Source: Candidatus Omnitrophota bacterium (GTDB lineage: Bacteria; Omnitrophota; Gorgyraeia; Aquiviventales; Aquiviventaceae). From it: DNA of 64,000 nt. The notes under the pieces are model-generated. The model was not told the DNA's origin and made no database searches. It saw only the letters and a program-made list of their open reading frames with translations. Shown here piece after piece: positions 1,633-46,135 of this stretch; positions within the stretch are counted from its first letter, which is position 1, and each line of letters opens with the position of its first letter. The translations under genes and the position numbers were made by a program. The DNA lies in assembly GCA_023247255.1 (NCBI GenBank), contig JAHFGV010000001.1:22464-86463 (forward strand), in the 5' to 3' direction.

Positions 1633-1652
1633 GGTATTTGCGGAATTCAGGG

Positions 1653-3524
1653 TTATGCCAAGATGCCTGTTTCCAACCAAGTCATCTTACCGTCGAGGAA
1701 GTTCTGGGTCAGTTGATAGGATTGATGGTCATCGTTGTGAGCCATACCCTTCCATGCTTGCGCGATTTGACGTCGGGCCAAGCGGCAGAAGACGTCGGCT
1801 AACTGCTCGGGGCTTGAATCCGATACGTTCTGAGACAGCATGGCCTGGGCTTTTGAGCAGGCAGCCATCATGACGAACAGGTAGCTTCCCACATCGACGA
1901 GCCTGGCCAAGAGTTGTTGCTGATCGGCAAGGCGCATTTGATAGCGCAAGGCGCTATGAAAAAGGGTACGGGCGAGTTTATGGCTGGTCTGTTCCACAAA
2001 CTGCATATGCCTGGCCAAAGGCTCAGGCAGACGATGAGCGAGACTGATCCCTTTCCAGGAACACCATTGTTGGGGATACCAGACTGCGTAATGCAGGCCT
2101 GCTCCCCAGGTGGTTTGGAGTCTGTGGGCGAGGCTCTGTCTTTGTTTCAACAAACTTGCCAGAATCCGCAAGTGGGCATCGAGCGCTTCACGTGCGATGA
2201 ATAGCCGCATGATCTCACTGGTGCCCTCGATGATGCGATTGATTCGAGCATCCCGCATCATACGCTCGACAGGCTCCGGGGGTTCACCACGCGCGCGCAG
2301 GGAGGGCGCAGTTTCGTAGCCACGCCCACCGCGAATCTGGACGGTGGCATCGACGATACGCCAGCAGGCTTCGGAGCAGAACAATTTAGCCATGGCGGCT
2401 TCGAGTCGAATGTCGATCGTCTTTCGATCGACCAGAGAAGATACCAGCCAGACCATGGCGTCCATAGCAAACGTCGTCGCTGCGATCTCAGCGATTTGTA
2501 CGGCAATGGCCTGGTGCCTGCCGATCGGTTTGCCCCATTGTTGGCGCTGTTGTGCCCATGGCCGGATGATTTGAAGACAGCGTTTTGCCGTTCCAACAGA
2601 AGCAGCAGGAATTGCGATACGACCCGCATTCAATGTGGTTAATGCCAGCTTCAAGCCGAGTCCCAGTCCCCAAAGGATGTGGGACTTGGGTATTCGGACG
2701 TTGTGAAAACGCAGGACGCCGTTTTGGATCCCTTTCAGACCCATGAAGTCGCAACGGTGTACGACTTCAAACCCGGGCATGGATCGCTCCACGATGAAAG
2801 CCGTGATCTGTTTGCGCTCCTTGCCCCCGATTGTAACAGAAGGTGTCCTTGCCATGACGATGACTACCTCAGCCACAGGACCATTGGTACACCAGAGCTT
2901 TTCTCCGCTGAGCAGATAGTATTGCCCATCTTCAATGGGGGTCGCTGTCGTCATCATGTTGGCCGGATCTGACCCGACTTCTGGCTCCGTCAAAGCAAAG
3001 GCAGAGATCGTTCCGGCAGCCAGCCGCGGCAGGAATTGACGTTTCTGTTGCTCCGTTCCAAAGAGCATGAGGGGTTGGGGGGCGCCGATGCTTTGATGAG
3101 CACTGAGCCAAACCGTCGTGGACCCACAAAAGCTTCCCAGAAGGGCGATCACCCGATTGTAATTGGTCTGGGACATCTCTAGCCCGCCGTATGCCTTCGG
3201 AATCTTCATTCCGAAACATCCCAGCCGCGCGAGCCCCTCAATGACCGTGGCGGGGATTTCTCCTGTTCGATCGATTTCATCAGGATCCACCGAGGACTTG
3301 AGGAATGCGCTCAACTCGGCGATGAAGGTGTCGCCGATCTGGCGGTCCTGAGGATTTTGTTCAGGATAGGGAAAGATAATATCCGTGCGTACTCGTCCCA
3401 TAAACAAATCGGCAACGACGCTGGGATAGTGCCACTCTGTTTGTCGAGCCGCCTCTGTTACCTCAAGCGCTTCAGGGGATCCTGACCGAAGCAACGGATG
3501 AGAATCTGGAGTTGGATTCATCAA
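1653..3524 (-). CDS. Acyl-CoA dehydrogenase (long form, ~620 aa)
   Basis: 623 aa ORF; ACAD N/M/C domains (GAPQPLMLFGTEQQKRQFLPRLA, FALTEPEVGSD, C-terminal extension); tandem with fadD. Confidence 0.85.
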   Translation of the reverse strand: MMNPTPDSHPLLRSGSPEALEVTEAARQTEWHYPSVVADLFMGRVRTDIIFPYPEQNPQDRQIGDTFIAELSAFLKSSVDPDEIDRTGEIPATVIEGLARLGCFGMKIPKAYGGLEMSQTNYNRVIALLGSFCGSTTVWLSAHQSIGAPQPLMLFGTEQQKRQFLPRLAAGTISAFALTEPEVGSDPANMMTTATPIEDGQYYLLSGEKLWCTNGPVAEVVIVMARTPSVTIGGKERKQITAFIVERSMPGFEVVHRCDFMGLKGIQNGVLRFHNVRIPKSHILWGLGLGLKLALTTLNAGRIAIPAASVGTAKRCLQIIRPWAQQRQQWGKPIGRHQAIAVQIAEIAATTFAMDAMVWLVSSLVDRKTIDIRLEAAMAKLFCSEACWRIVDATVQIRGGRGYETAPSLRARGEPPEPVERMMRDARINRIIEGTSEIMRLFIAREALDAHLRILASLLKQRQSLAHRLQTTWGAGLHYAVWYPQQWCSWKGISLAHRLPEPLARHMQFVEQTSHKLARTLFHSALRYQMRLADQQQLLARLVDVGSYLFVMMAACSKAQAMLSQNVSDSSPEQLADVFCRLARRQIAQAWKGMAHNDDHQSYQLTQNFLDGKMTWLETGILA

Positions 3525-4573
3525 TGAGTCTGACGGATTGGAGATACCAAACGAGCGGTTCGTGACGCTGGACAGATAACGTTTCCTGGGGCGCCCTTAA
3601 TAAAATCGGTGATGTTGTCAGCGGTGGTGTCCAGGATTCGTTGGAGCGCTTCCCGGCTGTCGAAGGCAATATGGGGGGTGATCACCACGTTTTCTCGGTG
3701 CAAGAGGATATGGTTTTTCAATGCCGTGGCCAGTTTCTCTTTGGGAAAATCCTTGGAAAGCAATTGGTGCTCTTCTTTCACCAGCTCTTCGCCTTCCAAT
3801 ACATCCAGTCCCACGCCGCTGACGATTCCTTCGTCCAAGGCCCATACCAAAGCATCTGTGTCAATGAGCCCTCCCCGCGCGGTATTGATCAAAAGCGATC
3901 CCCGTTTCATCAAGGTGAAGGTCTTGCGATTCATCAGATGGTGAGTCGCTAAGGTATAGGGCACATGAAGGCTGACGATGTCTGAATGGCGCAGCAAACT
4001 TTCGAGAGAGGCATAGCCAAAATCGAGGACTTCACTCAGAAAGGGATCCCTTCGAATATCATGGACCAAAACGTCCATGCCAAACCCCTTTGCCATCTTG
4101 ATGACGTGCAAGCCGATGTGACCACTGCCCACCACGCCCAGGGTCTTTCCTTTTAAATCGAATCCTTGCAGCCCTTCCAAAGAGAAATCCCCTTTCATAG
4201 TCTTGATATAGGCTTTATGGATGTTGCGGGAAAGAGCCAGGATCAATGCAAAGGTATGCTCGGCCACAGTATTCTCTCCGTACGAGGGTACGTTGGAAAC
4301 CGCGATGTGGCGTTTCTGACAGGTGGCTATGTCGATATGATCGAAACCCGTGGAGCGCGTGGCGATGAAACGCAACCGAGGAAGGCGGCGAAGGATAGAA
4401 GCACTGAGGCGGGAGTAGATGAACACGGAAAGAATTTCGGTGCCTGAAGCGATTCGTAAATTGTCTTCCGTGAGCGGATCAGGAATGCACTGGATGCTCA
4501 GCCGCAGGCGTGCCAAGGCACTGGCAAGAAACCGGCGTTCCCAAGAAGCGGTTTCGAAAAACACGGCTTTCAT
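3521..4573 (-). CDS. D-isomer specific 2-hydroxyacid dehydrogenase family protein (NAD-binding)
   Basis: GVVGSGHIGLHVIKMAKGFGMDV Rossmann, catalytic R/E/H pattern typical of D-2-HADH. Confidence 0.8.
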   Translation of the reverse strand: MKAVFFETASWERRFLASALARLRLSIQCIPDPLTEDNLRIASGTEILSVFIYSRLSASILRRLPRLRFIATRSTGFDHIDIATCQKRHIAVSNVPSYGENTVAEHTFALILALSRNIHKAYIKTMKGDFSLEGLQGFDLKGKTLGVVGSGHIGLHVIKMAKGFGMDVLVHDIRRDPFLSEVLDFGYASLESLLRHSDIVSLHVPYTLATHHLMNRKTFTLMKRGSLLINTARGGLIDTDALVWALDEGIVSGVGLDVLEGEELVKEEHQLLSKDFPKEKLATALKNHILLHRENVVITPHIAFDSREALQRILDTTADNITDFIKGAPGNVICPASRTARLVSPIRQTH

Positions 4574-4585
4574 GATGGGATCGTC

Positions 4586-5443
4586 TCAGCGATCCTTGAA
4601 TTGGGGCTGGCGTTTTTCACGGAACGCCCGGAGGCCCTCCCGACTGTCTTCGCTCTGCGCAACCACGCCAAAGGCCTCTGCTTCCAGAGCCAAGCCATCC
4701 TCCAACGAACGATCTGCTCCCTTTTCAATAGCGCGTAGCGATTGGGTTACGGCAACCATGCCTTTCGCTGCGATTTTCCTTGCCAGATCCTTGGCGGCTT
4801 TGAGGACTTGACCCTGAGCGACTACGAGGTTTACCAATCCCACACGGTAGGCTTCCTGTGCGGAAAATAGGTCGCCGGTCAGAATCCACTCAATCGCTTT
4901 TGCCTTTCCAATCAGGCGAGGGAGTCGTTGGGTCCCTCCCCATCCCGGTATAATGCCTAGAGTGACTTCGGGTTGGCCGAATCGGACACGGTCTCCGCTG
5001 ATTCGTAAATGGCAGGACATTGCTAGTTCCAGTCCTCCTCCCAGACAGACTCCATTGATCGCGGCAATCACGGGTTTGTCCGACCGCTGTAATTTCAGAA
5101 AGACCGATTGGCCCAAGGATGCCATTTGCTTGGCCTCATCTACCGAAGCAATCTGACTCATTTCTTTCAAATCAGCACCGGCCACAAAAGCCAGCGACCC
5201 TGCGCCGGTGACGATGATGACTTTGCTTGCGGTTTCCGTTTGAAGGCTGTCTAACGCCTGCCCGAGTTCGTTTAACGTCTGCCGGTTCAAGGCGTTGACC
5301 GGACGATGATCAATCGTCACAATTCCCACCCGATCTTCCACGGTTACTTTCACACATTCTCCTGAGTTCAAGGCTGTCATGTCATAGGGTCCACGTTTTA
5401 TTTCGGATTTAGGATGGCAAATTGCGGATTGAAAAGAAATCAA
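4586..5443 (-). CDS. Enoyl-CoA hydratase/crotonase
   Basis: AAINGVCLGGGLELAMSCHLRI, crotonase fold signature. Confidence 0.9.
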   Translation of the reverse strand: MISFQSAICHPKSEIKRGPYDMTALNSGECVKVTVEDRVGIVTIDHRPVNALNRQTLNELGQALDSLQTETASKVIIVTGAGSLAFVAGADLKEMSQIASVDEAKQMASLGQSVFLKLQRSDKPVIAAINGVCLGGGLELAMSCHLRISGDRVRFGQPEVTLGIIPGWGGTQRLPRLIGKAKAIEWILTGDLFSAQEAYRVGLVNLVVAQGQVLKAAKDLARKIAAKGMVAVTQSLRAIEKGADRSLEDGLALEAEAFGVVAQSEDSREGLRAFREKRQPQFKDR

Positions 5444-5446
5444 GAG

Positions 5447-6667
5447 TCATGGGTAGTCAAAGAAGCCTTTCTTTGTCTGTTTGCCTAGATGTCCGGCAGC
5501 TACCTTTCGCTTCAACAAAGGCGACGGCCAGAACCGATCCCCGAATAGCTGGGTCAAGCGCTCCAGTTCCGACAGGACGTTTTGCAGCCCGATTTCATCG
5601 GCGTAATGAAGAATGCCTCCCTTGGATTGGGGAAAGCCTAATCCTGCGATCACAGCAAGATCGACGTCAGACGCTGTGCAGACTTGTTCTTCCAGACAAC
5701 GGATAGCCTCGTTGATCATCGGCAGGATGAGTCGTTTGGCTGAATATTCCTTCGGTCCGCGCCAGGAAGCTTGGAGTTGTTGCAGGATGCCTTCTAGCTG
5801 TGGATCGGACTCAGCCGAGCGCTCGCCATAGAGATAGAAGCCAGCACCTGATTTCACGCCATAACGCTTCAGGGCGGCAAGGCGTTCCCAGATCGCCGCC
5901 GGACGCATCCGTGGACCGTAAGCGTCCTGGAGGATGTTCACCACTTCACGGCAGACGTCAAAACCCAGGCTATCGACCAAAGTAAAGGGCCCCATGGGAA
6001 ACCCGAAAGCAACGATGTCCTCATCGATCTGGCGAGAGGAAGCAGCCCCCTCCTGAACACAGTAGGCGGCTTCATTGAGATAAGGCATGAGGATACGATT
6101 GACGAGAAAACCGGGGCATTCATTGACACGGATCGGTATCTTACGCAGGCTCTCGGCAAAAGTCATCACATCCGCAACCGTTTCATCGGAAGTCTCCAAG
6201 CCGGGAATCACCTCGACGAGTTTCATGATATGTGCGGGGTAAAAGAAGTGCATGCCGATTACTTTGTGCGGACGCTTGGTCACGCTACCCAATGCACAGA
6301 TCGACAGCGAGGAGGTGTTCGAGGCCAAGATGGCCGCTTCGGGGCTTTTTGCATCCAACTCTCGGAAGATCTGCCCTTTGAGATCGAGCCGCTCCGGTAC
6401 CGCTTCGATGACGAGATCAACATCTTTAAACGCTGCGTAGTCTGTCACGCCAGTGACTAGACTGAGTTTCTGCTCCATCTCATCGGCGGTCATCTTTCCT
6501 CGATCCACACGCCGTTTGTAGATGGAACGGACCACCGATAGCCCCTTATCGACCAAGGGCTGGTTGATATCTTTTAAGAGAACCGGGATTCCACTGAAGC
6601 TGATCACTTGAGCGATCTCAGCACCCATCGCCCCGGCACCCACCACAGCAGTCTTGTAAATATACAT
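5447..6667 (-). CDS. 3-hydroxyacyl-CoA dehydrogenase (with duplicated C-terminal 3HCDH domain)
   Basis: N-terminal AVVGAGAMGAEIAQV NAD-binding, 406 aa. Confidence 0.9.
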   Translation of the reverse strand: MYIYKTAVVGAGAMGAEIAQVISFSGIPVLLKDINQPLVDKGLSVVRSIYKRRVDRGKMTADEMEQKLSLVTGVTDYAAFKDVDLVIEAVPERLDLKGQIFRELDAKSPEAAILASNTSSLSICALGSVTKRPHKVIGMHFFYPAHIMKLVEVIPGLETSDETVADVMTFAESLRKIPIRVNECPGFLVNRILMPYLNEAAYCVQEGAASSRQIDEDIVAFGFPMGPFTLVDSLGFDVCREVVNILQDAYGPRMRPAAIWERLAALKRYGVKSGAGFYLYGERSAESDPQLEGILQQLQASWRGPKEYSAKRLILPMINEAIRCLEEQVCTASDVDLAVIAGLGFPQSKGGILHYADEIGLQNVLSELERLTQLFGDRFWPSPLLKRKVAAGHLGKQTKKGFFDYP

Positions 6668-6676
6668 CGATATCTC

Positions 6677-7873
6677 TTAGATTTTCTCAAACACGATTGC
6701 TGCCCCCTGCCCTCCTCCTACGCAGGCGGTAGCCACACCGATCGAGAGGTTGCGTCGTTTCATTTCATGGAGCAGCGTCACGACGATACGCGTCCCGGTA
6801 GCACCTACAGGATGGCCCAGGGCGATGGCACCGCCGTTGACGTTGGCAATGTCACGACTGAAATTCAACGCACGCTCACAGGCCAGATAGGTTGCGGCAA
6901 AGGCCTCGTTGATCTCAATAAGCTGCACGTCCTTCAGGCTGAGGCCGGCTTTCTTCAATGCTAAAGGTACGGCCAAGGTGGGGCCCAAGCCCATACGTTC
7001 CGGTTCAAGAGCTGCAAAGGCGTAGGATCGCACACGGGCAAGAACCGTGTAGCCACGGGCCTTCGCTTGGTCCTGCGTCATGATCAGAACCATAGCGGCT
7101 CCATCTGCATTGAAACAACTGTTGCCGGATGTCACTGAACCCTGTTCTTTGAATACCGGAGGATATTGACTCAAGAGTTGCTCATTCAATCCAGGGTTGA
7201 TCCCTTCGTCTTGCGTGAAGGGTTCAGAAGGCAGTTCCCTACCCATGGCGCGTTTAGGAATAAGGACAGGGACTAACTCTTCTTTGAATCGTCCTTCCCG
7301 TGTGGCCCGGTAAGCGCGCTGGTGAGACAAAACAGCAAAGCGGTCCTGCTCCGCACGCGAGAGGGAGAACTCTTGAACAAGGTTCTCTGCTGTCTGACCC
7401 ATGATTTGGCCGCAGATGGGATCGGTCAGCCCTTCCCAGATGGTATCCACCATTTCCGAGTGGCGCAGGCGCTTGCCCCAGCGCAGGTCCCGGCTCACAT
7501 AGGGAGCTGCACTCATACATTCGGCTCCCCCTGCGATTTGCACGTCACGTTCCGCGCAGGCGATATTCTGACAGGCATTCACAATGGCTTGTAACCCTGA
7601 GGCGCAATTGCGCTGGACGGTATAGGCCACTACGGCATGAGGAATCCCTGCTCGAAGGGCAATGACTCGCGCTAGGTTCGGGGCATCCGATGCCTGTCCC
7701 ACGCAGCCAACGATGACTTCTTCCACCTCAGCCGGCTTCAGATTCGTTCGCTTGAGCAGTTCACGAACGACAATCTCCCCTAACTGCTGTGATGTAAAAT
7801 TCTTCAAGGCCCCCCCAAACACTCCTTGGGGGCTGCGGAGTCCCTCGACGATAACAGCCTCACGAGACATCAA
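6677..7873 (-). CDS. Acetyl-CoA C-acyltransferase (thiolase)
   Basis: NCASGLQAI active-site Cys, C-terminal GHPVGATG and GGGQGAA motifs. Confidence 0.92.
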   Translation of the reverse strand: MMSREAVIVEGLRSPQGVFGGALKNFTSQQLGEIVVRELLKRTNLKPAEVEEVIVGCVGQASDAPNLARVIALRAGIPHAVVAYTVQRNCASGLQAIVNACQNIACAERDVQIAGGAECMSAAPYVSRDLRWGKRLRHSEMVDTIWEGLTDPICGQIMGQTAENLVQEFSLSRAEQDRFAVLSHQRAYRATREGRFKEELVPVLIPKRAMGRELPSEPFTQDEGINPGLNEQLLSQYPPVFKEQGSVTSGNSCFNADGAAMVLIMTQDQAKARGYTVLARVRSYAFAALEPERMGLGPTLAVPLALKKAGLSLKDVQLIEINEAFAATYLACERALNFSRDIANVNGGAIALGHPVGATGTRIVVTLLHEMKRRNLSIGVATACVGGGQGAAIVFEKI

Positions 7874-7884
7874 TATTCTCTCTC

Positions 7885-10152
7885 TTATCGCCCAGTGTAC
7901 TGGTCTTGTACGGGCTTGTCAACGGAGAGCTCCCGCAGACCGGCGATGCGTTTGATCTCCGGCAGATAGGCCATGGCGATTTCTTCCCCTCGACGGATGA
8001 ATTTCTCCGGGCTGAAAAACTCCAGCCAGTGAGAATCCGGTACCGTGGGACGCAAGGTCAGATCGGCCTCACGGCAGGAGATTTCCGCAATCTGGTATTC
8101 CATCCACTGCATGGAGCGCATGATGACATCGAAAACCAGAGGAGAAACAGCCTGTATGAGTTCGTGGCGAAGCCAGACCAAGAAGCGGATGGGAAAACTT
8201 CGCGAAGCCAGCTGCGCCTCACGCTGCTGACGCCGCTGCTGCAGCTTTTGACGGTGCATCCTGAGTTCCTCTATGTTGGGAAAAACGTTGACGGCGATCA
8301 CACGATTCGCCCCCGCTTGTTTAAGGACACTGACCGGAATGGGATTGACGACTCCTCCATCCAGGCAAATATCTCCACCAAACCGTATCGGTTTGAAAAT
8401 GCCCGGGATGGATACCGAGGCACGGACCGCCTCTGCCAGGGATCCGGAGTCGATGATCACTTCTTCCCGGGTCATCGGGTTGGCGGCCACGATTTTTACA
8501 GGAATCCAAGTATCCTCAAAAGTTCTGTTCTGGAAATCTGCCTGGAGTCTTGCCATTAACTGAGCACCCTGAATGGGACCTCCGGATAATGGCCCGAGGA
8601 TCAAACCCATGATGACACACACGAAACTGGCCAGCAGCGCTGTCCAGATTCCGGCGATCGGCCAGACGACCAGTCCCATTACCACGGCGACCACGACACT
8701 TACCAAGGGCACCTGCACGTCGAGCAGAAAGAGTTTGTTGATATCCCACGGATGCTTGAATCTCAATGCCATGTGTTCGATCTCTTCCACGCTACGACCC
8801 GAAGCCCACAAGCCGCCGATCAGTGCACCGATGCTTGAGCCTGCAATAATGTCGATCGGGATTTTCTCGCGTTCAAGTACTTTAAGCACCCCGATATGAG
8901 CCAATCCCAGAGCGGCTCCAGAGCCGAGAGCCAGTCCCACAAGGCCACCGCTTAGTTTTCGCGCAACCCGTTGGACGGTCAGCGCGTAAGCGGATCGACG
9001 TTCCTCCAAAAGCTGAGCCAAGCTTTCAATAGTCATGGCATCCGCCAAAGGAAGGAAAGGAAGAGTGAACGTGACCGGACGGCCCAATTGTTCCGCGATC
9101 CCCACATCTCGACCTCGCGGCGGACCTCCTAAGAGCATGCTCAAAAAATTCGTTTTCTCCTCTGAATCTTGCAACTGATTGAGAACAACCTGGACGCGTT
9201 GCGTGGTGGTGCTCACCACAGAGGTGATTTGATGGATCAGCATTCGCGTTTGCGCCAAATGGTCGGAATCAGGATTAGTCACCACGTAGATGAGATCGGA
9301 CTGAGTGAGTGCTTTCAAGACCGGCGGGGTGGCTTCGGCAGGCAGATCGACCAGGACGTAGTGGAAGCGTTTGGTCAATGCGTTCAACAGGGGAGCGACG
9401 GTGTGTTCTCCTTGGGAATCAGAAAGCAGCTCCCCGGCACTCAACAGCAGAAATCCCAGTGGGTGGATGTCTAGGACATTGTCTAATTGCTCTTCCAAAA
9501 CTAGATTGGTTAGCGTGGTTTTAATCTCGGACGAAGGACGACTAGACTTAAAACGCCACGCCCAATGATGGGGGTCATTGGTCATATTGACCAAAACGAT
9601 CTGGCGATTGGTCTCGTGCTTCAGCATAGCTGCCAAGGAAACGGCAAACAATGTGCAGCCTACTCCTCGGGTGGCGCTGGTGATAGAGGCGATCGTCGTA
9701 TCGGTGGGTTCAGGAAGGTCTTCGCGGGTTCGCAGACGCTTGGAAAGCAATCGGCTGAGGTAGAGTACTAAAGACGGGATACGGTTAATGACTTCGTTGA
9801 AATCTTCCTTCTTCAATTCAAGCACCAGGGTATCATTGAGTGCCTGGACCGTTGCCGAGTGCTTTTCTCCTGTCAGTAAAGAGATCTCTCCAAAAGAATC
9901 TCCGTTATAGAGAATGGCCAAGGTCTTCTCAACATGATGGGACAAAGAGAAAACACGCAGACGGCCCGAGCTGACGATATAAAAAGAGTCCGCAGGATCC
10001 CCCTCGCGGTAAATCACTTCTTCCTTCTTATATTCCACCAGGCGGGTGCGTTTTGCAATCAGGTACAGCTGTTGATCCGTGCAAGCAGCAAACAGGGGGA
10101 TGCGCTTAAGTATTACGATCTTGTCTTGCCAGTGCGACGACTCAAGCGTCAT
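7885..10152 (-). CDS. Cyclic-nucleotide-binding domain / patatin-like phospholipase (NTE-like) with internal TM segment and degenerate ParA/MinD-like middle domain
   Basis: N-terminal cNMP-binding (FAACTDQQLYLIA...GDPADSFYIVSSGRLRV); patatin GxSxG (GSSIG) and DGG motif (DGGVVNPIP); hydrophobic stretch LVSVVVAVVMGLVVWPIAGIW; middle region has Walker-A-like TRGVGCT lacking Lys. Confidence 0.8.
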   Translation of the reverse strand: MTLESSHWQDKIVILKRIPLFAACTDQQLYLIAKRTRLVEYKKEEVIYREGDPADSFYIVSSGRLRVFSLSHHVEKTLAILYNGDSFGEISLLTGEKHSATVQALNDTLVLELKKEDFNEVINRIPSLVLYLSRLLSKRLRTREDLPEPTDTTIASITSATRGVGCTLFAVSLAAMLKHETNRQIVLVNMTNDPHHWAWRFKSSRPSSEIKTTLTNLVLEEQLDNVLDIHPLGFLLLSAGELLSDSQGEHTVAPLLNALTKRFHYVLVDLPAEATPPVLKALTQSDLIYVVTNPDSDHLAQTRMLIHQITSVVSTTTQRVQVVLNQLQDSEEKTNFLSMLLGGPPRGRDVGIAEQLGRPVTFTLPFLPLADAMTIESLAQLLEERRSAYALTVQRVARKLSGGLVGLALGSGAALGLAHIGVLKVLEREKIPIDIIAGSSIGALIGGLWASGRSVEEIEHMALRFKHPWDINKLFLLDVQVPLVSVVVAVVMGLVVWPIAGIWTALLASFVCVIMGLILGPLSGGPIQGAQLMARLQADFQNRTFEDTWIPVKIVAANPMTREEVIIDSGSLAEAVRASVSIPGIFKPIRFGGDICLDGGVVNPIPVSVLKQAGANRVIAVNVFPNIEELRMHRQKLQQRRQQREAQLASRSFPIRFLVWLRHELIQAVSPLVFDVIMRSMQWMEYQIAEISCREADLTLRPTVPDSHWLEFFSPEKFIRRGEEIAMAYLPEIKRIAGLRELSVDKPVQDQYTGR

Positions 10153-10194
10153 CGGAGTGGGTGTCTGACGGTTTCGTTAAAACGGCCAGAGCTC

Positions 10195-10962
10195 TCAAAG
10201 ACACAGGCATTGGTCACGTAGCCGTTTGGGATCGTTGGTGAAAAACCCATCGACGCCCCATCGCAGGAGCTGGCGAGCCTGTTTGGGTTCATCGATCGTC
10301 CATGCATGAACTCGGAGTCCGATGGTGTGCGCTTTTTCAATGCGTGTGGGGTTCAGCAAGGAATGAAACGGATGCCATGCCTTGCAACGAAGCCGGACAG
10401 CCTGTCGTAGCGAGGAATCTGGGTAATGACGACAAATCAGCGCCAAGGCAAGACCGGTTCCTTGGAGGCCCTCAAGCAATGCGGGATCAAAAGATGAAAG
10501 AAGCAGACGTTTCTTCAAAGACGCCGATGCGATTATCTGCAGGATTCGATTCAACAAGGCCTTACGCTTCGAGGTCCGTTTCAATTCGAGATTGATTCCC
10601 ATCCAGGATGGCACATAACGAAGTGCTTGCGAGAGTAATAAAATCCTTTGTTTTTTGAATCGCGGATGAAACCAACAGCCCGCGTCCAATTGAGCTAACT
10701 TAGAATAAGGGGTGCGTCCAATGTGCCCTCGGCCGTTGGTGGTCCGCTCCAATCGCTCGTCATGGAAAATAATGAGCTCGCCATCAAAGGTCATCTGAAC
10801 ATCTAATTCCACCATATCGGCTCTGGCTTGTGCAGCGCATCGAATGGCCGCTCGGGTACCTTCAGGAGCGACGGCAGAAGCTCCTCGATGAGCGATAATC
10901 CAAGGAAACGTTTTGGGGCTACGGCCTATGGCCTGGATATCCCAAGTCCGCCATTGCGCCAC
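10195..10962 (-). CDS. Glycerophosphodiester phosphodiesterase (GDPD); start uncertain
   Basis: PWIIAHRGAS...VELDVQMTFDGELIIFHDERLERTTNG GDPD motifs. ORF-track ORF extends to 11223 through a repeat copy and would overlap the upstream DUF62 gene; the in-frame GTG at 10960-10962 lies inside the repeat and is a guess. Confidence 0.75.
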   Translation of the reverse strand: MAQWRTWDIQAIGRSPKTFPWIIAHRGASAVAPEGTRAAIRCAAQARADMVELDVQMTFDGELIIFHDERLERTTNGRGHIGRTPYSKLAQLDAGCWFHPRFKKQRILLLSQALRYVPSWMGINLELKRTSKRKALLNRILQIIASASLKKRLLLSSFDPALLEGLQGTGLALALICRHYPDSSLRQAVRLRCKAWHPFHSLLNPTRIEKAHTIGLRVHAWTIDEPKQARQLLRWGVDGFFTNDPKRLRDQCLCL

Positions 10963-11070
10963 GGCCGAAAGCGGTGGGCGGACACGGCAGTCAGCAGCCA
11001 ATGGGTAGACGGGATGTCGCCCCACGCGAGGCGGAGTTGCCGGTGCCACAGGCTCATCCTGTGGGACCCC
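10951..11070 (+). repeat. REP/MITE-like palindromic element family 1, copy A (single unit)
   Basis: ccattgcgccacggccgaaagc...gggatgtcgccccacgcgaggcg...gtgccacaggctcatcctgtggg; shares 100+ bp with copies at 15268, 19721, 21337(rc), 34262. Confidence 0.85.
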
Positions 11071-11074
11071 CCTT

Positions 11075-11631
11075 TTAGGAGATGCGTGCGACCTTGTCTG
11101 TGCGCTTGGCATACCAGACCTTGGCTGCGGAACCTTCACGAATCGCCAGCTCGATGAATCCGTGCGAACCCACCACAGCAACCAACTTTCTCGCAGGTCC
11201 TTCTGAATATGATGATACCACACTCAAGCGGTTTCGTTTGTATTCAACGGGTTCCATTTCAACACCGCCGATTTCTCGGGGCAAAGCGAAGCTACTAGGG
11301 CTTCCCACTCCGGAATCGACGACACCGACGAAAACGGTTTTGGGTGGGAACCAGCGAAAGGTGTAGGCTAGCGTAAAGGCTCCTGCAAAAATGTCTAGGG
11401 GGGGATTTCATGCGTGATGTCAATCAATCGGGCGGCGGGACAGCGCGAAAGGGTGACTGCCTCGAGGCAGGCAACGTACCCATCTCGCGTCCCAAAGTCA
11501 CTCAGCAAAGCGATCAAGGGCTGAGATTTGAACGGGAAGATGGCGGGTTCGGGTAAGCTGCTGTTTTGTGGAGTCCCACGGCCAGAGGCCATGGCCCGAT
11601 GGCGGGGTCGACGCACTCGATGTTCGTCCAA
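11075..11631 (-). pseudogene. SAM hydroxide adenosyltransferase-like (DUF62) gene split by a frameshift at a C7 homopolymer
   Basis: N-terminal ORF 11395-11631 (..LIALLSDFGTRDGYVACLEAV..DITHEIPP*) and C-terminal ORF 11075-11308 (..VAVVGSHGFIELAIREGSAA..). Adding one C to the run at ~11394-11400 joins them as THEIPPLDIFAGAF..VGVVDSGVGS.. Confidence 0.7.
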
Positions 11632-12578: not shown

Positions 12579-13286
12579 TTAGCCATCCTCCTTCGTCAGT
12601 TTTCTGGGTAGGTCACCCAATGGACAGTGATCGCAGTCAGGGTTCTTCCGTTGGCAGTAACGCTTTCCCACTGCGACTAGCAAGGCGTGGAACTCATTAT
12701 AAAGCGATACGCTGTGTGTCCACCCCGACATTGCGCCACGGCCGAAAGCCTTCATTACGAGCCGTTGAATGGTTTCATAAGTGGCGGTGCCGTCGATGAC
12801 TCCATGCCGACGAAACACTCTTCGAGTGTAGGCATCGACGGCAAATACCGGTTGCTGGCCAGCGTACAGGAGTATACAATCCGCCGTTTCAGGACCAATT
12901 CCCCGCAGGGCTAGAAGCTCCTGGCGCAAGATCTGCCACGGTCTTTGGAACATCCGTGACGGACGTCCCCCATAACGGTGGATATACCACTGAGTAAACG
13001 CGCGCAATCGTTGAGTCTTTTGACGGAAATATCCCGCCGGCCGAATCAGTCGTTGGAGCCTGAGAATCGGCAATCTTAACAATCCTTCAGCAGACAATGC
13101 CTGAGCTTGTTTCAACTGACTGATCGCCCGTTGGACATTACGCCAGTTCGTCGCCTGCGTCAGGATGGCACCAACCATCATTTCAAAAGGGCTCTTGGCT
13201 GGCCACCAGTGTTGAGGCCCAAAGGCTTTTGCGAGTCGCTGATAAATGACGGATACCGATACTGCTTTCCGGTTTTGGCTCGGCAT
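12579..13286 (-). CDS. HhH-GPD / endonuclease III-related DNA glycosylase with 4Fe-4S cluster loop
   Basis: LRGIGPETADCILLYA HhH-GPD; C-x6-C-x2-C-x5-C (CQRKNPDCDHCPLGD). Confidence 0.8.
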   Translation of the reverse strand: MPSQNRKAVSVSVIYQRLAKAFGPQHWWPAKSPFEMMVGAILTQATNWRNVQRAISQLKQAQALSAEGLLRLPILRLQRLIRPAGYFRQKTQRLRAFTQWYIHRYGGRPSRMFQRPWQILRQELLALRGIGPETADCILLYAGQQPVFAVDAYTRRVFRRHGVIDGTATYETIQRLVMKAFGRGAMSGWTHSVSLYNEFHALLVAVGKRYCQRKNPDCDHCPLGDLPRKLTKEDG

Positions 13287-14107: not shown

Positions 14108-15195
14108 TCAGGGCCATCGCATCTAAATTTGTAGGAGGATCTGCGCAAGGTGGTCCGTATCACAGGCGGCACGCAGACGTCTGACCTTGATGCCGTCTTT
14201 GCGTGAGGTTTCGCGCTTCAGGAGATTGAGAGCCACACGCCGCAGGAGAGCGAGATTTTCTGGGACATGCTGTTTGCGGACCCGAGAGAGATTCTCACCG
14301 AAGCACACATCGAAGGTCCAGTGCAGAGCGTTTTCGATGGACCAGTGTGCACGCACCGCTTCGGCAAAGCGCGGCAGCTCAGTCTCTGGCAAGCTCAAGA
14401 GGTAGTAACGTCGTTGGGTCTGAGTAGAGCCGTTAGCCGTCTGTTGAGCTTCGACCATGTCGTGACCCAATCATCGAGGCAGGTGCGGACTTCCTCAAAG
14501 GCCGTTTCGTGATTGCCTTTGAGTGCCAGGACATAGTCGGCCTTCGCCGTGGTGATATCCTGGGCGATCGATTTTTGGGTCCCCAGCGCATCGATGGTGA
14601 CAATACATCCTGCCAGATCGAGCAGTTGCAGCAAGTGCGGGATGGCAGTGATCTCGTTGGAGTGCTCGGCACTCTTCATCTGGCCCAGGACCACTCGATT
14701 CTTGAAGGCCCAGGCACTCACCAGGTGCGGTGCTCTCCAGCTGCGCGATCGAACGAACGCCGCAGCGTCTTGCCATCGATGGCCACCCCGTCGCCATCGG
14801 TAGCACTGCTGATGTATCGAATCCAATAGAGGCAGCACTGTTGAAATGCGCGGGGATCCAGTAAAGCAAAGACGCTGCCAAAGGTATCCTGTGAGGGAAT
14901 CCCGTTGGGCAACTTGAGGAGCCCTCGAAGCCAGGCCTCCTTGGCCTTGCCGAATTCCTCCACCTCCACCCAAGAATCGGCTCCGCAGATTATGGCGCAG
15001 AGCGCGATCACAATAATCTCCAACAGGTCATGGCGTTTGGTACGGTCAATCCTCGGGTCTTTCAATGATTGAGAAGTGATGGAAGATATCCGCTGGAGAG
15101 CGCTGGAGCATCGCACCTGCTCTCTGGTCTGTCATCGCAAAGAAGCTATTATCGCAACTCCTTTTCGCTAGAGAAAGTTAAGATGCGATGGCCTT
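14108..15195 (-). mobile_element. ISAs1-family insertion sequence (degenerate), flanked by 10-bp direct repeat GGCGGACGAG
   Basis: Terminal inverted repeats gggccatcgcatctaaa (14111-) and ttaagatgcgatggcc (-15193); identical 10-mer GGCGGACGAG at 14098-14107 and 15196-15205 (target-site duplication). Confidence 0.75.
14123..15116 (-). pseudogene. ISAs1-family transposase split into three frames
   Basis: ORFs 14718-15116 (DPRIDRTKRHDLLEIIVIALCAIICGADSW), 14395-14973 (ITAIPHLLQLLDLAGCIVTIDALGTQKSIAQDI) and 14123-14470 (HWSIENALHWTFDVCFGENLS) together match one ISAs1-type DDE transposase. Confidence 0.8.
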
Positions 15196-15267
15196 GGCGG
15201 ACGAGTTACATTTGCTTGACAGGACTTGGTGATGCGCTACAATGTTGATAATTTTCCTCACTCACTG

Positions 15268-15400
15268 CACCCCGCCGTCGGGCACAGGCCTTAGGCCATG
15301 AGCCCAGTTGGCTGGATTCAACGAGCCGGGGGGTGGGATGTCGCCCCACGCGGGGCGTGTTCTTGGATGTCACGGGCTTACCCGTGGGGCTCCACAAAAC
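15268..15400 (+). repeat. REP/MITE-like element family 1, copy C (unit type 2), ends at exeA ATG
   Basis: ccccgccgtcggg...gcccagttgg...gggtgggatgtcgccccacgcgg...cacgggcttacccgtggggctccacaaaac. Confidence 0.8.
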
Positions 15401-18789: not shown

Positions 18790-18919
18790 CGTTAGACGAC
18801 GGATTTCGAAACGTCAATGAGTTTGGAGGAAAAGGGAAAGGTTGTGATCGGCTCTAGCAGGCTGCGGGAAAATACCCATTTGCTTAAAGCTCGTGATACG
18901 GGAAGCGGGGCAAGTTTTT

Positions 18920-19000
18920 AATTTCGGATTTGGGATTGCGAATTGTGGATTGGAAAGAAATCAAAAATCCGAAATCCACAATCGAAAATCGACAATTCCA
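18920..19000 (+). repeat. Palindromic element family 2 (tandem degenerate octamers GGATTGNG x4, spacer, reverse complement x4)
   Basis: aatttcggatttgggattgcgaattgtggattgg...aatccgaaatccacaatcgaaaatcgacaattcc; homologous to 37512-37598 and to a half-copy inside hisF. Confidence 0.7.
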
Positions 19001-19327: not shown

Positions 19328-20152
19328 TCACAAGGTTTTCACAAAACAGTCTTGATAACGCGTTCTCAGCTCCACTTGCTTCTGGTGAGCGTTCGCCTTT
19401 GACGGGAATGGCCCCACGTACAATACGCTATGTCCGTTTCGTGTCATTAGAAATGCAGGTTCTCCTTGGGTCTTGAGCCGGTTGAGTTCTCGGGTGGCCA
19501 TCTGGGGCTTAGTGTAGGTCACCACTTGAACGGCATACCGACGTTTCTGGTCGTTTATATTGATCGTCTTGTTCGGGATTTCTGTTTGAAAAGTCGTAGG
19601 GGCCTTGGACGGTATCGTTAGGGGTGATGGATGATCGTTTTTCTGTACCGGTAATTGTGTTTTAAACGGCTGCGCCGGTGAGCAAGTTTCGGAAGCTTCA
19701 TCCGAAGGTTGCTGGCGAGTCAACCCCGCCATTGCGCCATGGCCGAAAACCGTAGGCGAGGCAGAGTTGTCGGTGCCACGGGCTAATCCTGTGGGGCTCC
19801 TCCCCGCCATCGGGCCCACGGCCGAAGGCATGGGCCCAGTTGGTTTGCTTAAGCAATTGGGTGGGCGGGATGTCGCCCCACACGAGGCGTCTCCTTGAAT
19901 ATCACGGGCTAATCCTGTGGGGCTCCACAATATTCGTTCCGTTCTTACCAGTTGTTTTCCCCGCTCTACCCCACAGGCAAAGACTACGGTAAACCCCAAG
20001 ACTGTTGCTATGGCAGCCATAATCAGTTGATCCGATCGCAGCTCAAAAGCAATCCTCCCCAATCTGTGTTTGCGCCCATAACCACCTGGCGTGGTCTGCG
20101 ATAGCTCAAAAAATTCCAATTGTCCTTCAGAATCGGTGGGTTGCATCTTCAC
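19328..20152 (-). CDS. SPOR-domain protein with a family-1 repeat doublet in-frame in its linker
   Basis: N-terminal TM (LIMAAIATVLGFTVVFACGV), C-terminal SPOR (YAVQVVTYTKPQMATRELNRLKTQGEPAFLMTRNGHSVLYVGPF); repeat at 19721-19935 is translated without a stop. Confidence 0.8.
   Translation of the reverse strand: MKMQPTDSEGQLEFFELSQTTPGGYGRKHRLGRIAFELRSDQLIMAAIATVLGFTVVFACGVERGKQLVRTERILWSPTGLARDIQGDASCGATSRPPNCLSKPTGPMPSAVGPMAGRSPTGLARGTDNSASPTVFGHGAMAGLTRQQPSDEASETCSPAQPFKTQLPVQKNDHPSPLTIPSKAPTTFQTEIPNKTININDQKRRYAVQVVTYTKPQMATRELNRLKTQGEPAFLMTRNGHSVLYVGPFPSKANAHQKQVELRTRYQDCFVKTL
19721..19935 (+). repeat. REP/MITE-like element family 1, copy D (tandem doublet) inside the SPOR-protein CDS
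   Basis: ccccgccattgcgccatggccgaaaacc...gtgccacgggctaatcctgtggggctcctccccgccatcgggcccacggccgaaggc...gggcgggatgtcgccccacacgaggcg...ctaatcctgtggggctccacaatatt. Confidence 0.9.
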
Positions 20153-20204
20153 TCTAAATACTCTTAGGAGTCGACGGACATTGTATGTAATTCAAACCCT
20201 CCCG

Positions 20205-20846
20205 TCAACCCTCAAACAACTCCGAGGGCTCTTTATGTCTTTGCAGTCTTTGTACACGATGCTCCTGACCTTTGAGGAGTCTGGCGATATTGGATCGGTG
20301 CCGGATGATCATTAAGAGAGTCAAACCCGATCCTGCAACCCATTCCGCCCAGCTTCGATGGAGAAGCATAAGACCGATCGGAATCACCAAGGATGCGGCT
20401 AAGGAACCTACCGAGACGTATCGCCAGATCAAAAAGCAGATTAACCACACCCCGATGGATATTACGGCAATCGACGGCCAACTGGCCAACAGAACACCGA
20501 TTGTGGTGGCGACTCCTTTACCTCCCGCAAATCGTAACCACACCGGAAAATCGTGTCCCATCACCGTTGCCAAGCCACATAGAACAGGAGATAACGTTTC
20601 TGACGGATCCCAAAACCATGGAGCGATGAGCGCGACGGCGAGAAATCCTTTAGCCACATCGACGATAAACACAAACAAGGCAGCCCAGGGACCTGCGGCC
20701 CGCGCCGTATTCGTCGCGCCGATATTTCCGCTTCCCACCGTGCGAATATCCGTATGTTTGAGGCATTTAACGACCCAGAATCCCGTGGGGATCGATCCGA
20801 TTAAATAACAAATGCCCAAAGCCAAGATCCATCGGAAGGTTTCCAT
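20205..20846 (-). CDS. plsY: Glycerol-3-phosphate acyltransferase PlsY
   Basis: GSGNIGATN motif, multi-TM. Confidence 0.92.
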   Translation of the reverse strand: METFRWILALGICYLIGSIPTGFWVVKCLKHTDIRTVGSGNIGATNTARAAGPWAALFVFIVDVAKGFLAVALIAPWFWDPSETLSPVLCGLATVMGHDFPVWLRFAGGKGVATTIGVLLASWPSIAVISIGVWLICFLIWRYVSVGSLAASLVIPIGLMLLHRSWAEWVAGSGLTLLMIIRHRSNIARLLKGQEHRVQRLQRHKEPSELFEG

Positions 20847-20911
20847 TTAAGAAACCCCCTCTAATGCAAACGAACCTATTCGTGAGACATTCTGAGGAAA
20901 GTCCGTTTGCA

Positions 20912-22453
20912 TTAGACGTCGTGTCTCAAGTCTGATTGCGCTTGTATTAATTGGATTGGGATTCCACCCAGTTGCGGGTGTTGATGCAAATGCTTCATCA
21001 AGTACCGTTGATAAGGAATCGGAAGACGAGCTTTTGGATGTGTGACCAGTTCCACACGACAGGGATGTCCGGAATGCCATCGGACATCCGTTAATTGCGG
21101 CGGGCGTCTACCGACGAGCGGAGGGGGATACGAATTCCACTTAGGTCGCAGGATGAAAAGGAGCTCTTTGGATGACAGCCCCTGTTGGATTACCTCTTTC
21201 ATCTGCAGTGCCAAGGGCAGGATGCGTTCCAACTGAAACTTTGTCTTCGCCGATACAGCAAGTACGGGAGCTCGCTGAGCTTCCGGAATCAGTCGGTGCA
21301 TCTGTTTGGCGAGTGAAGATGGCAGGTCGGATCGTGAAGCCCCACGGGATGAGCCTATGGCACCGACAAGTCCGCCCCGATGGGACCGATATCCCGCCCA
21401 CCCATCGTCTTCTGTACTACCGTGTCGCCCACGGCTTTCGGCCGTGGCGCAATGGCGGGGTCGATCATTTCCTCTCGCTGTTCTTGGGGTTGATCGTAAG
21501 TCCCTTTCTTTTGGTCTGTGCATACACAGATCCCACTTATTGAGAAGAAGAATAAATCCACAGCCTGCCAGACGCACTTGGCCGACCACCCGACGATCAT
21601 CGCGCGTCACACCCGCAGGAGCATCCAACACGACTAACGCGATGTCGCATTGTTTCAAAGCAGTCAGGGAGTGTGCCATCGAAAACAGATCGACAGGATG
21701 CTTGATTTTACTGCGATGTCTGAGTCCCGCGGTATCAGTCAGCGTGATTGGTTTCTTTCGGACACACAACTGTGTCTCAATGGCGTCTCGTGTCGTTCCG
21801 GGAAGATCGCTGATGATGGCCCGTTCCTCATCAAGGAGGGAATTGAGCAATGACGATTTGCCGACGTTTCGACGCCCGATGAGTACCATGCGACAACCGG
21901 CAGTCCCTTCTATGGAGGAAGCTGGCTTAAGAAGCACTGGGTTAGCCGAGGGGTGTTGAATGAGATCGTCCAATAGTTCTTCAATCCCTCCTGCGTGCAA
22001 GGCGGAAACGGGAAAAATAGAGCTCAGCCCCAGAGAAAAGAATTCCGGTGGAACCGTAAGGTTGTGATCTTGCTTGTTGATGAGACCCCAGATCGGTTTG
22101 CCCAGCCTTCTGAGATTTTCAACGATCATAATGTCTGAAGGGACCAACCCTTCTTGTCCATCACAAACAAAAAGGATCGCTTGCGCTTCTTGAATCGCTT
22201 TTTGAACCTGCCGCTGAATAGCTGGCCAAAGGGAATCGCCCGCGGGTGCCGCCAACTCCAATCCCCCTGTGTCGATGAGCCTAAAGGAGAAACCCCGCCA
22301 AGTTGCCTCGCCATAGAGTCTATCCCGGCTGGTCCCTCGCACAGGTGAAACGACGGCTTGGCGAGCGCCAATGATTCGATTAAAGAGAGTGGATTTTCCA
22401 ACGTTGGGGCGACCTACGATTGCAATCAGAGGAACCGCCGGTCGCTGAGTCAT
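20912..22453 (-). CDS. der: GTPase Der (EngA) with ~50-aa in-frame insertion from a family-1 repeat
   Basis: Two G domains (GRPNVGKSTLFN; GRRNVGKSSLLN; LLNKWDL), KH-like C-terminus; extra RPRHCATAESRGRHGSTEDDGWAGYRSHRGGLVGAIGSSRG sits between NKWDL and PVLAVSAK. Confidence 0.9.
   Translation of the reverse strand: MTQRPAVPLIAIVGRPNVGKSTLFNRIIGARQAVVSPVRGTSRDRLYGEATWRGFSFRLIDTGGLELAAPAGDSLWPAIQRQVQKAIQEAQAILFVCDGQEGLVPSDIMIVENLRRLGKPIWGLINKQDHNLTVPPEFFSLGLSSIFPVSALHAGGIEELLDDLIQHPSANPVLLKPASSIEGTAGCRMVLIGRRNVGKSSLLNSLLDEERAIISDLPGTTRDAIETQLCVRKKPITLTDTAGLRHRSKIKHPVDLFSMAHSLTALKQCDIALVVLDAPAGVTRDDRRVVGQVRLAGCGFILLLNKWDLCMHRPKERDLRSTPRTARGNDRPRHCATAESRGRHGSTEDDGWAGYRSHRGGLVGAIGSSRGASRSDLPSSLAKQMHRLIPEAQRAPVLAVSAKTKFQLERILPLALQMKEVIQQGLSSKELLFILRPKWNSYPPPLVGRRPPQLTDVRWHSGHPCRVELVTHPKARLPIPYQRYLMKHLHQHPQLGGIPIQLIQAQSDLRHDV
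21337..21476 (-). repeat. REP/MITE-like element family 1, copy E (single unit, reverse orientation) inside der
   Basis: Reverse complement reads gaccccgccattgcgccacggccgaaagccgtgggcg...gggtgggcgggatatcgg...gtgccataggctcatcccgtggggcttc. Confidence 0.9.
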
Positions 22454-23024: not shown

Positions 23025-23071
23025 CGAAATGTAAAGCCCTATCCCCCTTCGGCCGTGGCCCTATGACGGGG

Positions 23072-23110
23072 TAGAAGAAAACCCCACCCGCATTAACGGG
23101 TGGGGTTTTT
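23072..23110 (-). terminator. Rho-independent terminator after the glycine-zipper lipoprotein gene
   Basis: ccccacccg-cattaa-cgggtgggg stem-loop with U-runs on both sides. Confidence 0.65.
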
Positions 23111-34261: not shown

Positions 34262-34530
34262 TCGTCAATCGACCCCGTCATTGCGCCATGGCCGAAGGAT
34301 GTGAGCGACACGGCAGTGCAGAGCCGATTGGGTGGACGGGATGTCGCCCCACTCGAAGCGGACTTGCCGGTGCCACAGGCTTGTCCCGTGGGGCTCCTCC
34401 CCGCCATCGGGCCTCGACCTTCGGCTTTCGGCCCAGTTGGTTTGCTTAAGCGAACGGGTGGGCGGGATGTCGCCCCACTCGAAGCGGACTTGCCGGTGCC
34501 ACAGGCTTGTCCCGTGGGGCTCCACAATAT
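34262..34530 (+). repeat. REP/MITE-like element family 1, copy G (tandem doublet) filling the ocd-ychF intergenic space
   Basis: cccgtcattgcgccatggccgaagg...gggatgtcgccccactcgaagcgg...gtgccacaggcttgtcccgtggggctcctccccgccatcgggcc...gggcgggatgtcgccccactcgaagcgg...ggggctccacaatattt. Confidence 0.9.
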
Positions 34531-37511: not shown

Positions 37512-37598
37512 AATCTTCGATTGTAGATTTTCGATCTTCGATTGGAAAACATTGATCTGCCAACAAATCGACAATCGACGATTGACAATCGACAATTC
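37512..37598 (+). repeat. Palindromic element family 2, second copy
   Basis: cgattgtagattttcgatcttcgattgg...aatcgacaatcgacgattgacaatcgacaattcg. Confidence 0.7.
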
Positions 37599-44122: not shown

Positions 44123-44156
44123 CCTGAGATTTCACCCCCTGAATTTGATAACCTAC

Positions 44157-45928: not shown

Positions 45929-46135
45929 TTACTTATTTGTTCTCGTTTTTACAAATTCCTCAAGATCCTCGGGCGCAATGCGCCATCTCTTTATCTTAGT
46001 CGCACGAATCTGCTTCAGATTGATGAGCTCACGCACTCTCTCCTCAGTGAGGTCCAGCTTCTCAGCGACCTTCGCCACCGTCAGGTAATTTTTGACATCC
46101 ATAACGCGATCCTCGTTCTCAGTTCTTCGGGACAT
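45929..46135 (-). CDS. Excisionase/AlpA-like HTH DNA-binding protein
   Basis: YLTVAKVAEKLDLTEERVRELINLKQIRATKIKRWRI (HTH_17 / Xis-type). Confidence 0.7.
   Translation of the reverse strand: MSRRTENEDRVMDVKNYLTVAKVAEKLDLTEERVRELINLKQIRATKIKRWRIAPEDLEEFVKTRTNK

Follow-up and report, generated by a model that had tools for sequence, protein, structure and literature searches.

Selfish repeats carried in-frame within protein-coding genes are best documented in Rickettsia and in a few Proteobacteria and cyanobacteria. Other small repeats, namely the palindrome-associated transposable elements (PATEs) derived from IS200/IS605 and repetitive extragenic palindromic (REP) elements and REPINs of REP/REPIN-RAYT systems, have no terminal inverted repeats and no target duplication, and bear imperfect hairpins near both of their ends. 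Rickettsia palindromic elements (RPEs; Ogata et al. 2000, as summarised in PMC10969869) are described as multicopy hairpin units of ~100–150 bp that have no known transposase and often lie in-frame in unrelated housekeeping genes; fusions that keep the frame are unusually frequent among them (PMC10969869). Here we describe a dispersed hairpin repeat in a 64,000-nt stretch of a Candidatus Omnitrophota genome (assembly GCA_023247255.1, contig JAHFGV010000001.1, positions 22,464–86,463; henceforth the window), which lies in-frame in der, in a SPOR-domain gene and in a glycerophosphodiester phosphodiesterase (GDPD) gene. We consider it probable (roughly 80%) that the repeat is a family of non-autonomous selfish elements of Omnitrophota, kept, in the manner of RPEs, where it is in-frame in tolerant places. 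The family is RPE-like in function and structurally closest to hairpin-ended elements of the IS200/IS605 and REP kind that lack inverted repeats; it is thus a new family, whereas the phenomenon of in-frame palindromic repeats is already known.

A single repeat family is represented in the window by six full units, by one unit that is internally deleted and by three fragments of the 5' end, as called by direct reading of the region, a repeat scan of the window, an alignment of the copies and an nhmmer family model. Motifs taken from three different parts of the unit matched 5, 6 and 6 times, against 0.00, 0.03 and 0.00 matches expected from dinucleotide shuffles, which excludes chance, and the six full units were recovered by nhmmer with E-values of about 1e-25 to 1e-31. 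Within genes, we found a full unit that lies antisense within the 5' part of the GDPD open reading frame (ORF) and has a type A head (10944–11072, + strand; E 3e-25), another with a type A head inside der and co-oriented with it (21334–21464, − strand; E 1e-27), and a tandem doublet in the SPOR-domain gene, the second member of which is a full unit with a type B head, antisense to the gene (19802–19929, + strand; E 4e-29). The first member of this doublet (19720–19801, + strand) retains the 5' and 3' hairpins without the GGGATGTCGCCCCAC core, has a period of 78 nt rather than 126 nt, and is matched by nhmmer in two pieces (19720–19768 and 19756–19802). The other full units are intergenic: a solo copy with a type B head upstream of an AAA_22 ATPase gene (15265–15396, + strand; E 2e-27), and a doublet between ychF and an ornithine cyclodeaminase-family gene, found by nhmmer, with a type A head in its first unit (34268–34399, + strand) and a type B head in its second (34400–34526, + strand). 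Both doublets have the identical junction GGCTCC-T-CCCCGCC and 126-nt spacing, and it thus appears that the A+B pair was copied as one unit.

All copies listed in an earlier note on this DNA exist, with small corrections to their coordinates from the repeat scan, alignments and nhmmer; what that note called a tandem doublet in the SPOR gene does hold two units, the first of them internally deleted as described above. The 30-nt fragment it placed near 12721 is also real and spans 12719–12751 (+ strand): it consists of the left end and half of the first hairpin, lies in-frame in an ORF for an HhH-GPD (endonuclease III-like) glycosylase, and is 94% complementary to the der copy in the repeat scan, with an nhmmer E-value of 0.03 on its own. 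The list was nevertheless incomplete, and to it we add two further 5'-end fragments, one between the PilZ and GDPD genes (11575–11611, − strand; E 5e-6) and one downstream of a CDP-alcohol phosphatidyltransferase gene (23043–23075, − strand; E 0.003). Directly upstream of the solo copy and its AAA_22 gene there is a promoter-like site (15216–15243, + strand; TTGACA, 16 nt, TACAAT; 11/12 of consensus), which would place that copy in a 5' untranslated region, and a terminator scan flagged the Hc hairpin, with Ts after it, at 15342–15357.

The reading frame is intact across the repeat segments of der, the SPOR-domain gene and the GDPD gene. In Der (EngA; 20912–22453, − strand; 513 aa; two GTPase domains, Pfam MMR_HSR1, and one KH_dom-like), the repeat encodes residues ~330–374, in the loop that follows the G4 motif NKWD, and the peptide predicted across a junction reads ...TARGNDRPRHCATAESR... 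The segment between NKWDL and PVLAVSAK is absent from 13 of 13 orthologues (436–499 aa, 38–53% identity over the alignment), which bears out the earlier proposal of an insert at this point that leaves the ORF unbroken. An AlphaFold model built from the orthologue alignment (mean predicted local distance difference test score, pLDDT, of 75) renders residues 317–373 as coil with pLDDT below 50, flanked by a confident strand (299–305) and a confident helix (377–388), and the insert is thus predicted to be a floppy, disordered loop. Several close homologues have lineage-specific inserts of their own in other Der loops (P0029, P0030 and P0007; in P0029, ~45 aa rich in Gly, Pro and Arg that follow the first switch region), and these may be other repeat families read in-frame.

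In the SPOR-domain protein (19328–20146, − strand; 272 aa as called; Pfam SPOR at residues 204–272 of the 274-aa ORF 19328–20152), the doublet encodes an extra ~70 aa (residues ~73–143) in the linker that joins the membrane helix to the SPOR domain, as had been suggested. Orthologues retrieved by a search of 1.8 billion representatives are 184–236 aa long and were each matched in two stretches; they are without this segment, which the alignment places in a variable linker. The absence of the extra residues from both Der and SPOR orthologues was the outcome of the orthologue comparison that the earlier note had proposed. A third gene, which the earlier note had not pointed out, GDPD (10195–11112, − strand; 305 aa as called, within the ORF 10195–11223; assigned by Pfam), has the repeat at residues ~14–57 of the gene call, within a lineage-specific N-terminal extension of ~65 aa. 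Its orthologues (57–69% identity, several named Candidatus Omnitrophica) are 223–276 aa long, mostly 232–262 aa, and the nine that were aligned all begin 3–10 aa upstream of IIAHRG. Between the repeat and the GDPD domain the window has no ATG, GTG or TTG, and the ORF extends upstream through the repeat, which accounts for the 305-aa call.

We propose that the copies are scattered through the genome, that units would also move as A+B doublets, and that copies landing in-frame in the Der surface loop, the SPOR linker and the GDPD N-terminus would have been retained. They would be tolerated because GC-rich sequence seldom has stop codons and is therefore read through as disordered peptide. Specifically, 135 of 192 frames were free of stops against 129 expected from dinucleotide shuffles, meaning that readability is a by-product of GC content and gives no evidence of selection; on this count we rejected selection for translatability.

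The GDPD gene, together with cases from other genomes, strengthens the earlier suggestion of a dispersed hairpin repeat tolerated in the loops and linkers of housekeeping genes. We scanned one genome per species with the core pattern, and separately scanned metagenome, viral, plasmid and phage collections. The family occurs in at least four Omnitrophota metagenome-assembled genomes (MAGs); in the genome scan, full copies came from three Candidatus Omnitrophota MAGs and from one MAG labelled ‘uncultured Planctomycetales’, while two other phyla gave short, chance-level core matches only. The metagenome scan returned 43 contigs with the family, with the match often at a contig end, and there was no match to the repeat in the viral scan or in the plasmid and phage collections. 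Among these other copies, a dGTPase-like gene has one in-frame between its Pfam domains HD and HD_assoc, and CobA-HemD has one in-frame within its methylase domain. Further copies are found in-frame inside the ORFs of phosphoglycerate-mutase-like (apgM-like), RluD-like and GT9 glycosyltransferase genes (with a Pfam match on one side only); a TrmD ORF has the repeat in its C-terminal tail, and an amidase has it upstream of its signal peptide. In Candidatus Omnitrophota, an NAD kinase annotated by NCBI also carries a repeat-coded peptide, and in a census of repeat peptides in the protein database only 13 matches passed the large-database E-value. Genes run through the repeat in either orientation, using at least five of its reading frames, and some of the ‘open’ copies are actually intergenic (e.g., between coaBC and a pilin gene). 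An orthologous-insertion test on two syntenic, related contigs (L020 and L024) found half-units at differing sites. Read in reverse orientation, the left end of the element gives GCGCAATGGCGGGG, which includes an ATG (seen in the SPOR and Nth copies of the window). The copy beside the amidase (L052, 10217–10365) has a slightly different element sequence with an in-frame ATG directly before the lipoprotein-type signal peptide (..PMAVSLAGLLLVNAWGCAS), and this repeat end may supply the start codon of the amidase.

The unit itself is non-coding, with a modal length of ~126 nt and a GC content of 63–78% in a genome of 53% GC, and consists of a conserved core set among three to four short hairpins. 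From 5' to 3', (N)CGA and CCCCGCCATCG are followed by hairpin H1, a small palindrome that varies, the core GGGTGGGCGGGATGTCGCCCCACGCGGGGCGT, which is conserved, hairpin H3 and GGCTCCAC; the alignment of 35 distinct full copies runs from (N)CGA-CCCCGCCATCG to GGGGCTCCAC, with CCCCGCCATCGGGCC and GTGGGGCTCCAC as the end motifs. H1 begins ~11 nt from the left end and H3 stops ~8 nt from the right end, and both are kept by compensatory change. Although present in almost all copies, H1 is variable in sequence and length (common form GGCCACGGCC..GGCCGTGGCC; type A of the window GCGCCACGGCCGAAAGCCGTGGGCG; stems much longer in L031, L032, L053 and L055), while H3 is either CCACGGGC..GCCCGTGG or has a swapped inner stem, CCACCCCGCC..GGCGGGGTGG, and one of its pairs is found in all four states (G-C, G-T, A-C and A-T). 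Under this structure 90.2% of the alignment cells are paired, compared with at most 58% when partners are slid. The covariation score is 0.147 against 0.072, none of 500 shuffles scored as high as 0.147, and eight pairs changed on both sides. In the CCAC/GTGG helix, each of the ten one-sided changes leaves a wobble pair on the aligned strand, and in 30 of 32 copies it is this strand that has the more stable fold; both findings point to one particular strand in single-stranded form. Run on the raw alignment, RNAalifold gave only long-range pairs that are invariant, since indels misalign H1 and H3.

The unit has no terminal inverted repeats: in the consensus of 32–35 copies, CGACCCCGCCA at the 5' end and GGAGCCCCACG, the reverse complement of the 3' end, agree at ~6 of 11 positions. 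Nor was a flanking target duplication found in the 35 copies, whose 5' flank is mostly NCGA and whose 3' flank is variable after CTCCAC. In most of these copies CGA precedes CCCCGCC (most commonly as TCGA); it may be a target sequence, like the fixed tetra- or pentanucleotide beside the left end of PATEs, and may equally belong to the element. The label ‘REP/MITE-like’ (MITE, miniature inverted-repeat transposable element) given in the earlier note is therefore only loosely right, as there are no terminal inverted repeats or target duplications and the unit is a mosaic of three to four hairpins rather than a single REP palindrome. Thirteen copies measure 124 nt between anchors, the modal length, and of 27 copies 21 belong to one class modulo 3. 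The large expansions of H1 (+15, +18, +21 and +33) are multiples of three, and L029 has an H1 segment ~24 nt longer (its total is not measurable), whereas the small indels (−4, −2, −1 and +1) are not, and several expanded copies look intergenic. This bias towards multiples of three is a weak signal that we noticed after the fact, and some of the expansions may share an origin.

Compared with described systems, the repeat is closest to RPEs in behaviour: it is of similar size, forms hairpins, is multicopy and sits in-frame in unrelated housekeeping ORFs with a fold-compatible peptide (Der, SPOR and GDPD here, dGTPase-like and CobA-HemD elsewhere), and the RPE parallel drawn earlier on the grounds of a tolerated peptide therefore holds. 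It differs from RPEs in its host (Omnitrophota), in being GC-rich within a 53% GC genome, in the many frames in which it is read (RPEs keep to one conserved frame), and in forming A+B doublets. As the host phylum differs, sequence homology to RPEs is unlikely and the two are likened by features, not by sequence. With PATEs and REP-RAYT systems the repeat shares sub-terminal hairpins, ends without inverted repeats, strand-specific structure and, possibly, a base triplet that recurs against the left end (CGA in most copies). It differs from them in that no cognate Y1/HUH transposase with matching ends was found in the DNA we searched (see below), and in being larger and more mosaic than REPs. 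The latter, like REPINs, are extragenic and built on a single palindrome of 20–40 nt with a head tetranucleotide, whereas the repeat described here spans at least 124 nt between anchors, has no GTAG-type head and is often intragenic. Correia elements (NEMIS) are comparable in size (100–155 bp), high copy number, occasional overlap with coding sequence and effects on transcripts, but the parallel with them that had been proposed fails, as they have 26-bp terminal inverted repeats and a TA duplication and our repeat has neither. Finally, ERIC/IRU elements and QMITE1 of Coxiella are also small (ERIC ~127 bp), with intragenic cases and in-frame fusions (PMC10969869, PMC5896051), but they are long single imperfect palindromes or have inverted-repeat ends and belong to Proteobacteria, whereas here a chain of hairpins surrounds a core. 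In the literature we found no paper on such repeats in Omnitrophota, and one large MITE survey is silent on the phylum; these were limited checks and no proof of absence. The family extends the phenomenon to an uncultivated phylum and includes an insert beside the guanine-recognition motif of the essential GTPase Der. It also has practical consequences: such repeats break metagenome assemblies, inflate gene calls (e.g., the 305-aa GDPD and the NCBI-annotated NAD kinase) and can pass for lineage-specific protein features.

As genes read the element in either orientation, single-stranded DNA during mobilisation seems more plausible to us than an RNA role in the host, and the element might move as single-stranded hairpin DNA recognised by an HUH/Y1-type enzyme acting in trans, by analogy with IS200/IS605 ends or REP-RAYT; we regard this as possible but doubtful. 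The sub-terminal hairpins, the ends without inverted repeats and the strand-specific pairing nevertheless provide a handle for finding the mobilising enzyme. In 0.49 Mb of fetched DNA, tblastn detected a single IS200-type TnpA (L045, 12062–12490), the end hairpins of which (CCCCGCC..GGCGGGG and CCACGCC..GGCGTGG) are unlike H1 and H3. We thus rejected it as the cognate Y1 (HUH) enzyme. Beside this TnpA lie two tandem copies of a different hairpin repeat (12660–12841; GGAATGCCGCGTCCGGCGGGGACGCGGC). A similar tblastn search for RAYT, whose gene the repeats flank in REP/REPIN systems, gave no significant match in the fetched loci. A parent insertion sequence with the repeat's ends was sought in the 0.49 Mb and around this genome's IS4-like, IS256 and IS1595 genes, and none was found.

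The copies in the window appear to be old. They are 74–84% identical to the consensus of copies from other genomes, from which they differ by 97 GC-to-AT and 24 AT-to-GC changes, and their Hc hairpin is weakened. We infer that they are drifting towards the genome's 53% GC and are relics rather than active copies. The type A head is common to several of them and to L003 and L055, and these shared derived features suggest that a subfamily expanded in this lineage.

Several observations weigh against a family of selfish elements kept where they are tolerated. No transposase partner was found, and when ORFs within 2.5 kb of the copies were clustered, no gene family recurred beside them. The folds of whole units from the window are mostly not above those of shuffles in stability (z from +0.3 to −2.9). 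The folding of the unit suggested earlier thus mostly failed to separate the window copies from shuffles; the per-hairpin and covariation analyses do favour the hairpins. The exact ends and the lack of target duplication are read from the alignment of copies, and the core looks invariant in part because the collections were searched with the core pattern. That the inserts are translated is also something we infer. Furthermore, all eight repeat loci of ~82 kb (the window plus its flanks, L061 and L062) fall within 24 kb (window 10944–34526), while nhmmer and a flank search found no copies in window 1–10900 and 34600–64000, in the 8.3 kb before the window or in the 9.7 kb after it. Under uniform scatter the chance of such clustering is ~1e-3 (a rough estimate), and a simple scattering model does not predict it; local hopping or a regional bias is possible.

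Beyond a tolerated parasite, one could envisage a single-strand, hairpin-recognised element of HUH type that has spread across Omnitrophota and adapted to intragenic life, with length variants that keep the frame. It would furnish proteins with loops, with extensions at the N-terminus and possibly, through the ATG in GCGCAATGGCGGGG, with start codons, and so act as a recurrent generator of protein novelty. If true, this would mean new segments for essential proteins in a phylum of very small cells, though we judge it unlikely. A rival explanation is a classical MITE, a deletion derivative of a DDE insertion sequence moved in trans by an IS4/ISAs1-like, IS256 or IS1595 transposase. The repeat is indeed small, multicopy and non-coding; a degraded IS4/ISAs1-type transposase (14123–15116, − strand, in at least three frames; DDE_Tnp_1_assoc and two DDE_Tnp_1 pieces) lies 150 bp from copy 15265, and IS256- and IS1595-type genes lie just outside the window. 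However, the degraded transposase has no matching ends and no repeat copy on its other side, a motif search near the IS256 and IS1595 genes recovered no end-like motif, and the ends of the unit are too dissimilar as inverted repeats and too devoid of flanking duplications, as noted above, for this origin to be other than quite improbable.

We are similarly sceptical that the repeat is a structured RNA with a function in the host (an mRNA stabiliser, a terminator or a small RNA) that is repeated because it is useful, an explanation we hold to be very unlikely. Compensatory and strand-specific wobble changes, and the conservation of the core across genomes, would fit such a role, as would the copy between the promoter-like site and the AAA_22 gene with its Hc hairpin and Ts terminator call. 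By contrast, copies take both orientations relative to genes and, where they lie in coding regions, are read in several frames; fragments and units with internal deletions are still present, and copies decay towards the base composition of the host. Rfam had no match in the window at the gathering score, and for two copies searched at E up to 10 only chance-level ones (E of at least 0.26). An origin from a tRNA or tmRNA was likewise rejected, as ARAGORN found no such genes in the window.

It is less credible still, to the point of being barely tenable, that the unit is a module at the level of protein, i.e., a selected peptide insert (linker or interaction motif) spread by recombination and not a DNA parasite. 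In its favour, the frame is kept, the large length variants are multiples of three and the peptides recur in annotated proteins; yet one and the same DNA yields unrelated peptides, read as it is in either orientation and in at least five frames, many copies are intergenic, stops are not depleted beyond the expectation from GC content, and the Der insert is modelled as disordered.

We also considered the assembly. The ENA assembly ERZ27280021 contains the sequence of the window with identical gene calls (der 513 aa, SPOR 272 aa and GDPD 305 aa), and the window's stretches 19821–21449 and 7458–11065 recur at 100% identity in Logan contigs from run SRR14366783. Each Logan contig stops inside a repeat copy, as expected of a genuine multicopy repeat, and one gene-to-repeat junction each was reproduced for der, SPOR and GDPD; this support from a second assembly, which bears on the earlier concern about assembly artefacts, is one-sided, and the two assemblies may share their reads. 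That repeats were miscollapsed or misjoined into the three genes is extremely improbable: many metagenome matches and Logan contigs do end in copies and the window spans two ENA contigs, but the two halves of each gene flank its insert in the correct order and frame, a second assembler gives the junctions at 100% identity, the ENA assembly has the gene calls just named, and unrelated MAGs have in-frame copies of a comparable kind. The ENA assembly divides the window between k141_4060729 and k141_5728979, which by coordinate arithmetic overlap by 141 nt at window 47874–48014; the window therefore comes from a different, longer assembly, and one of its proteins is recorded on a 105-kb NCBI contig.

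Among the other features of the window, Pfam assigned plsY (20205–20846, − strand), between the SPOR-domain gene and der, and the HhH-GPD glycosylase that holds the in-frame fragment (12579–13286, − strand). A second, AT-rich repeat family (TTTAATTTCGGATTTGGGATTGCGAATTGTGGATTGG ... CCGAAATCCACAATCGAAAATCGACAATTC) occurs at 5396–5448, 18917–18998 and 37565–37598, the copy at 18917–18998 forming a long imperfect palindrome in an intergenic gap. GC skew gave no usable signal in the window for orienting replication. The segment 42000–48000 has a GC content of 0.47 with strongly negative GC and AT skew, and holds a TIR_2-domain protein (42680–43597), a 433-aa protein without a Pfam match (46119–47420) and an 89-nt direct repeat at 44144 and 47547 (75% identical); this segment may be an acquired island.

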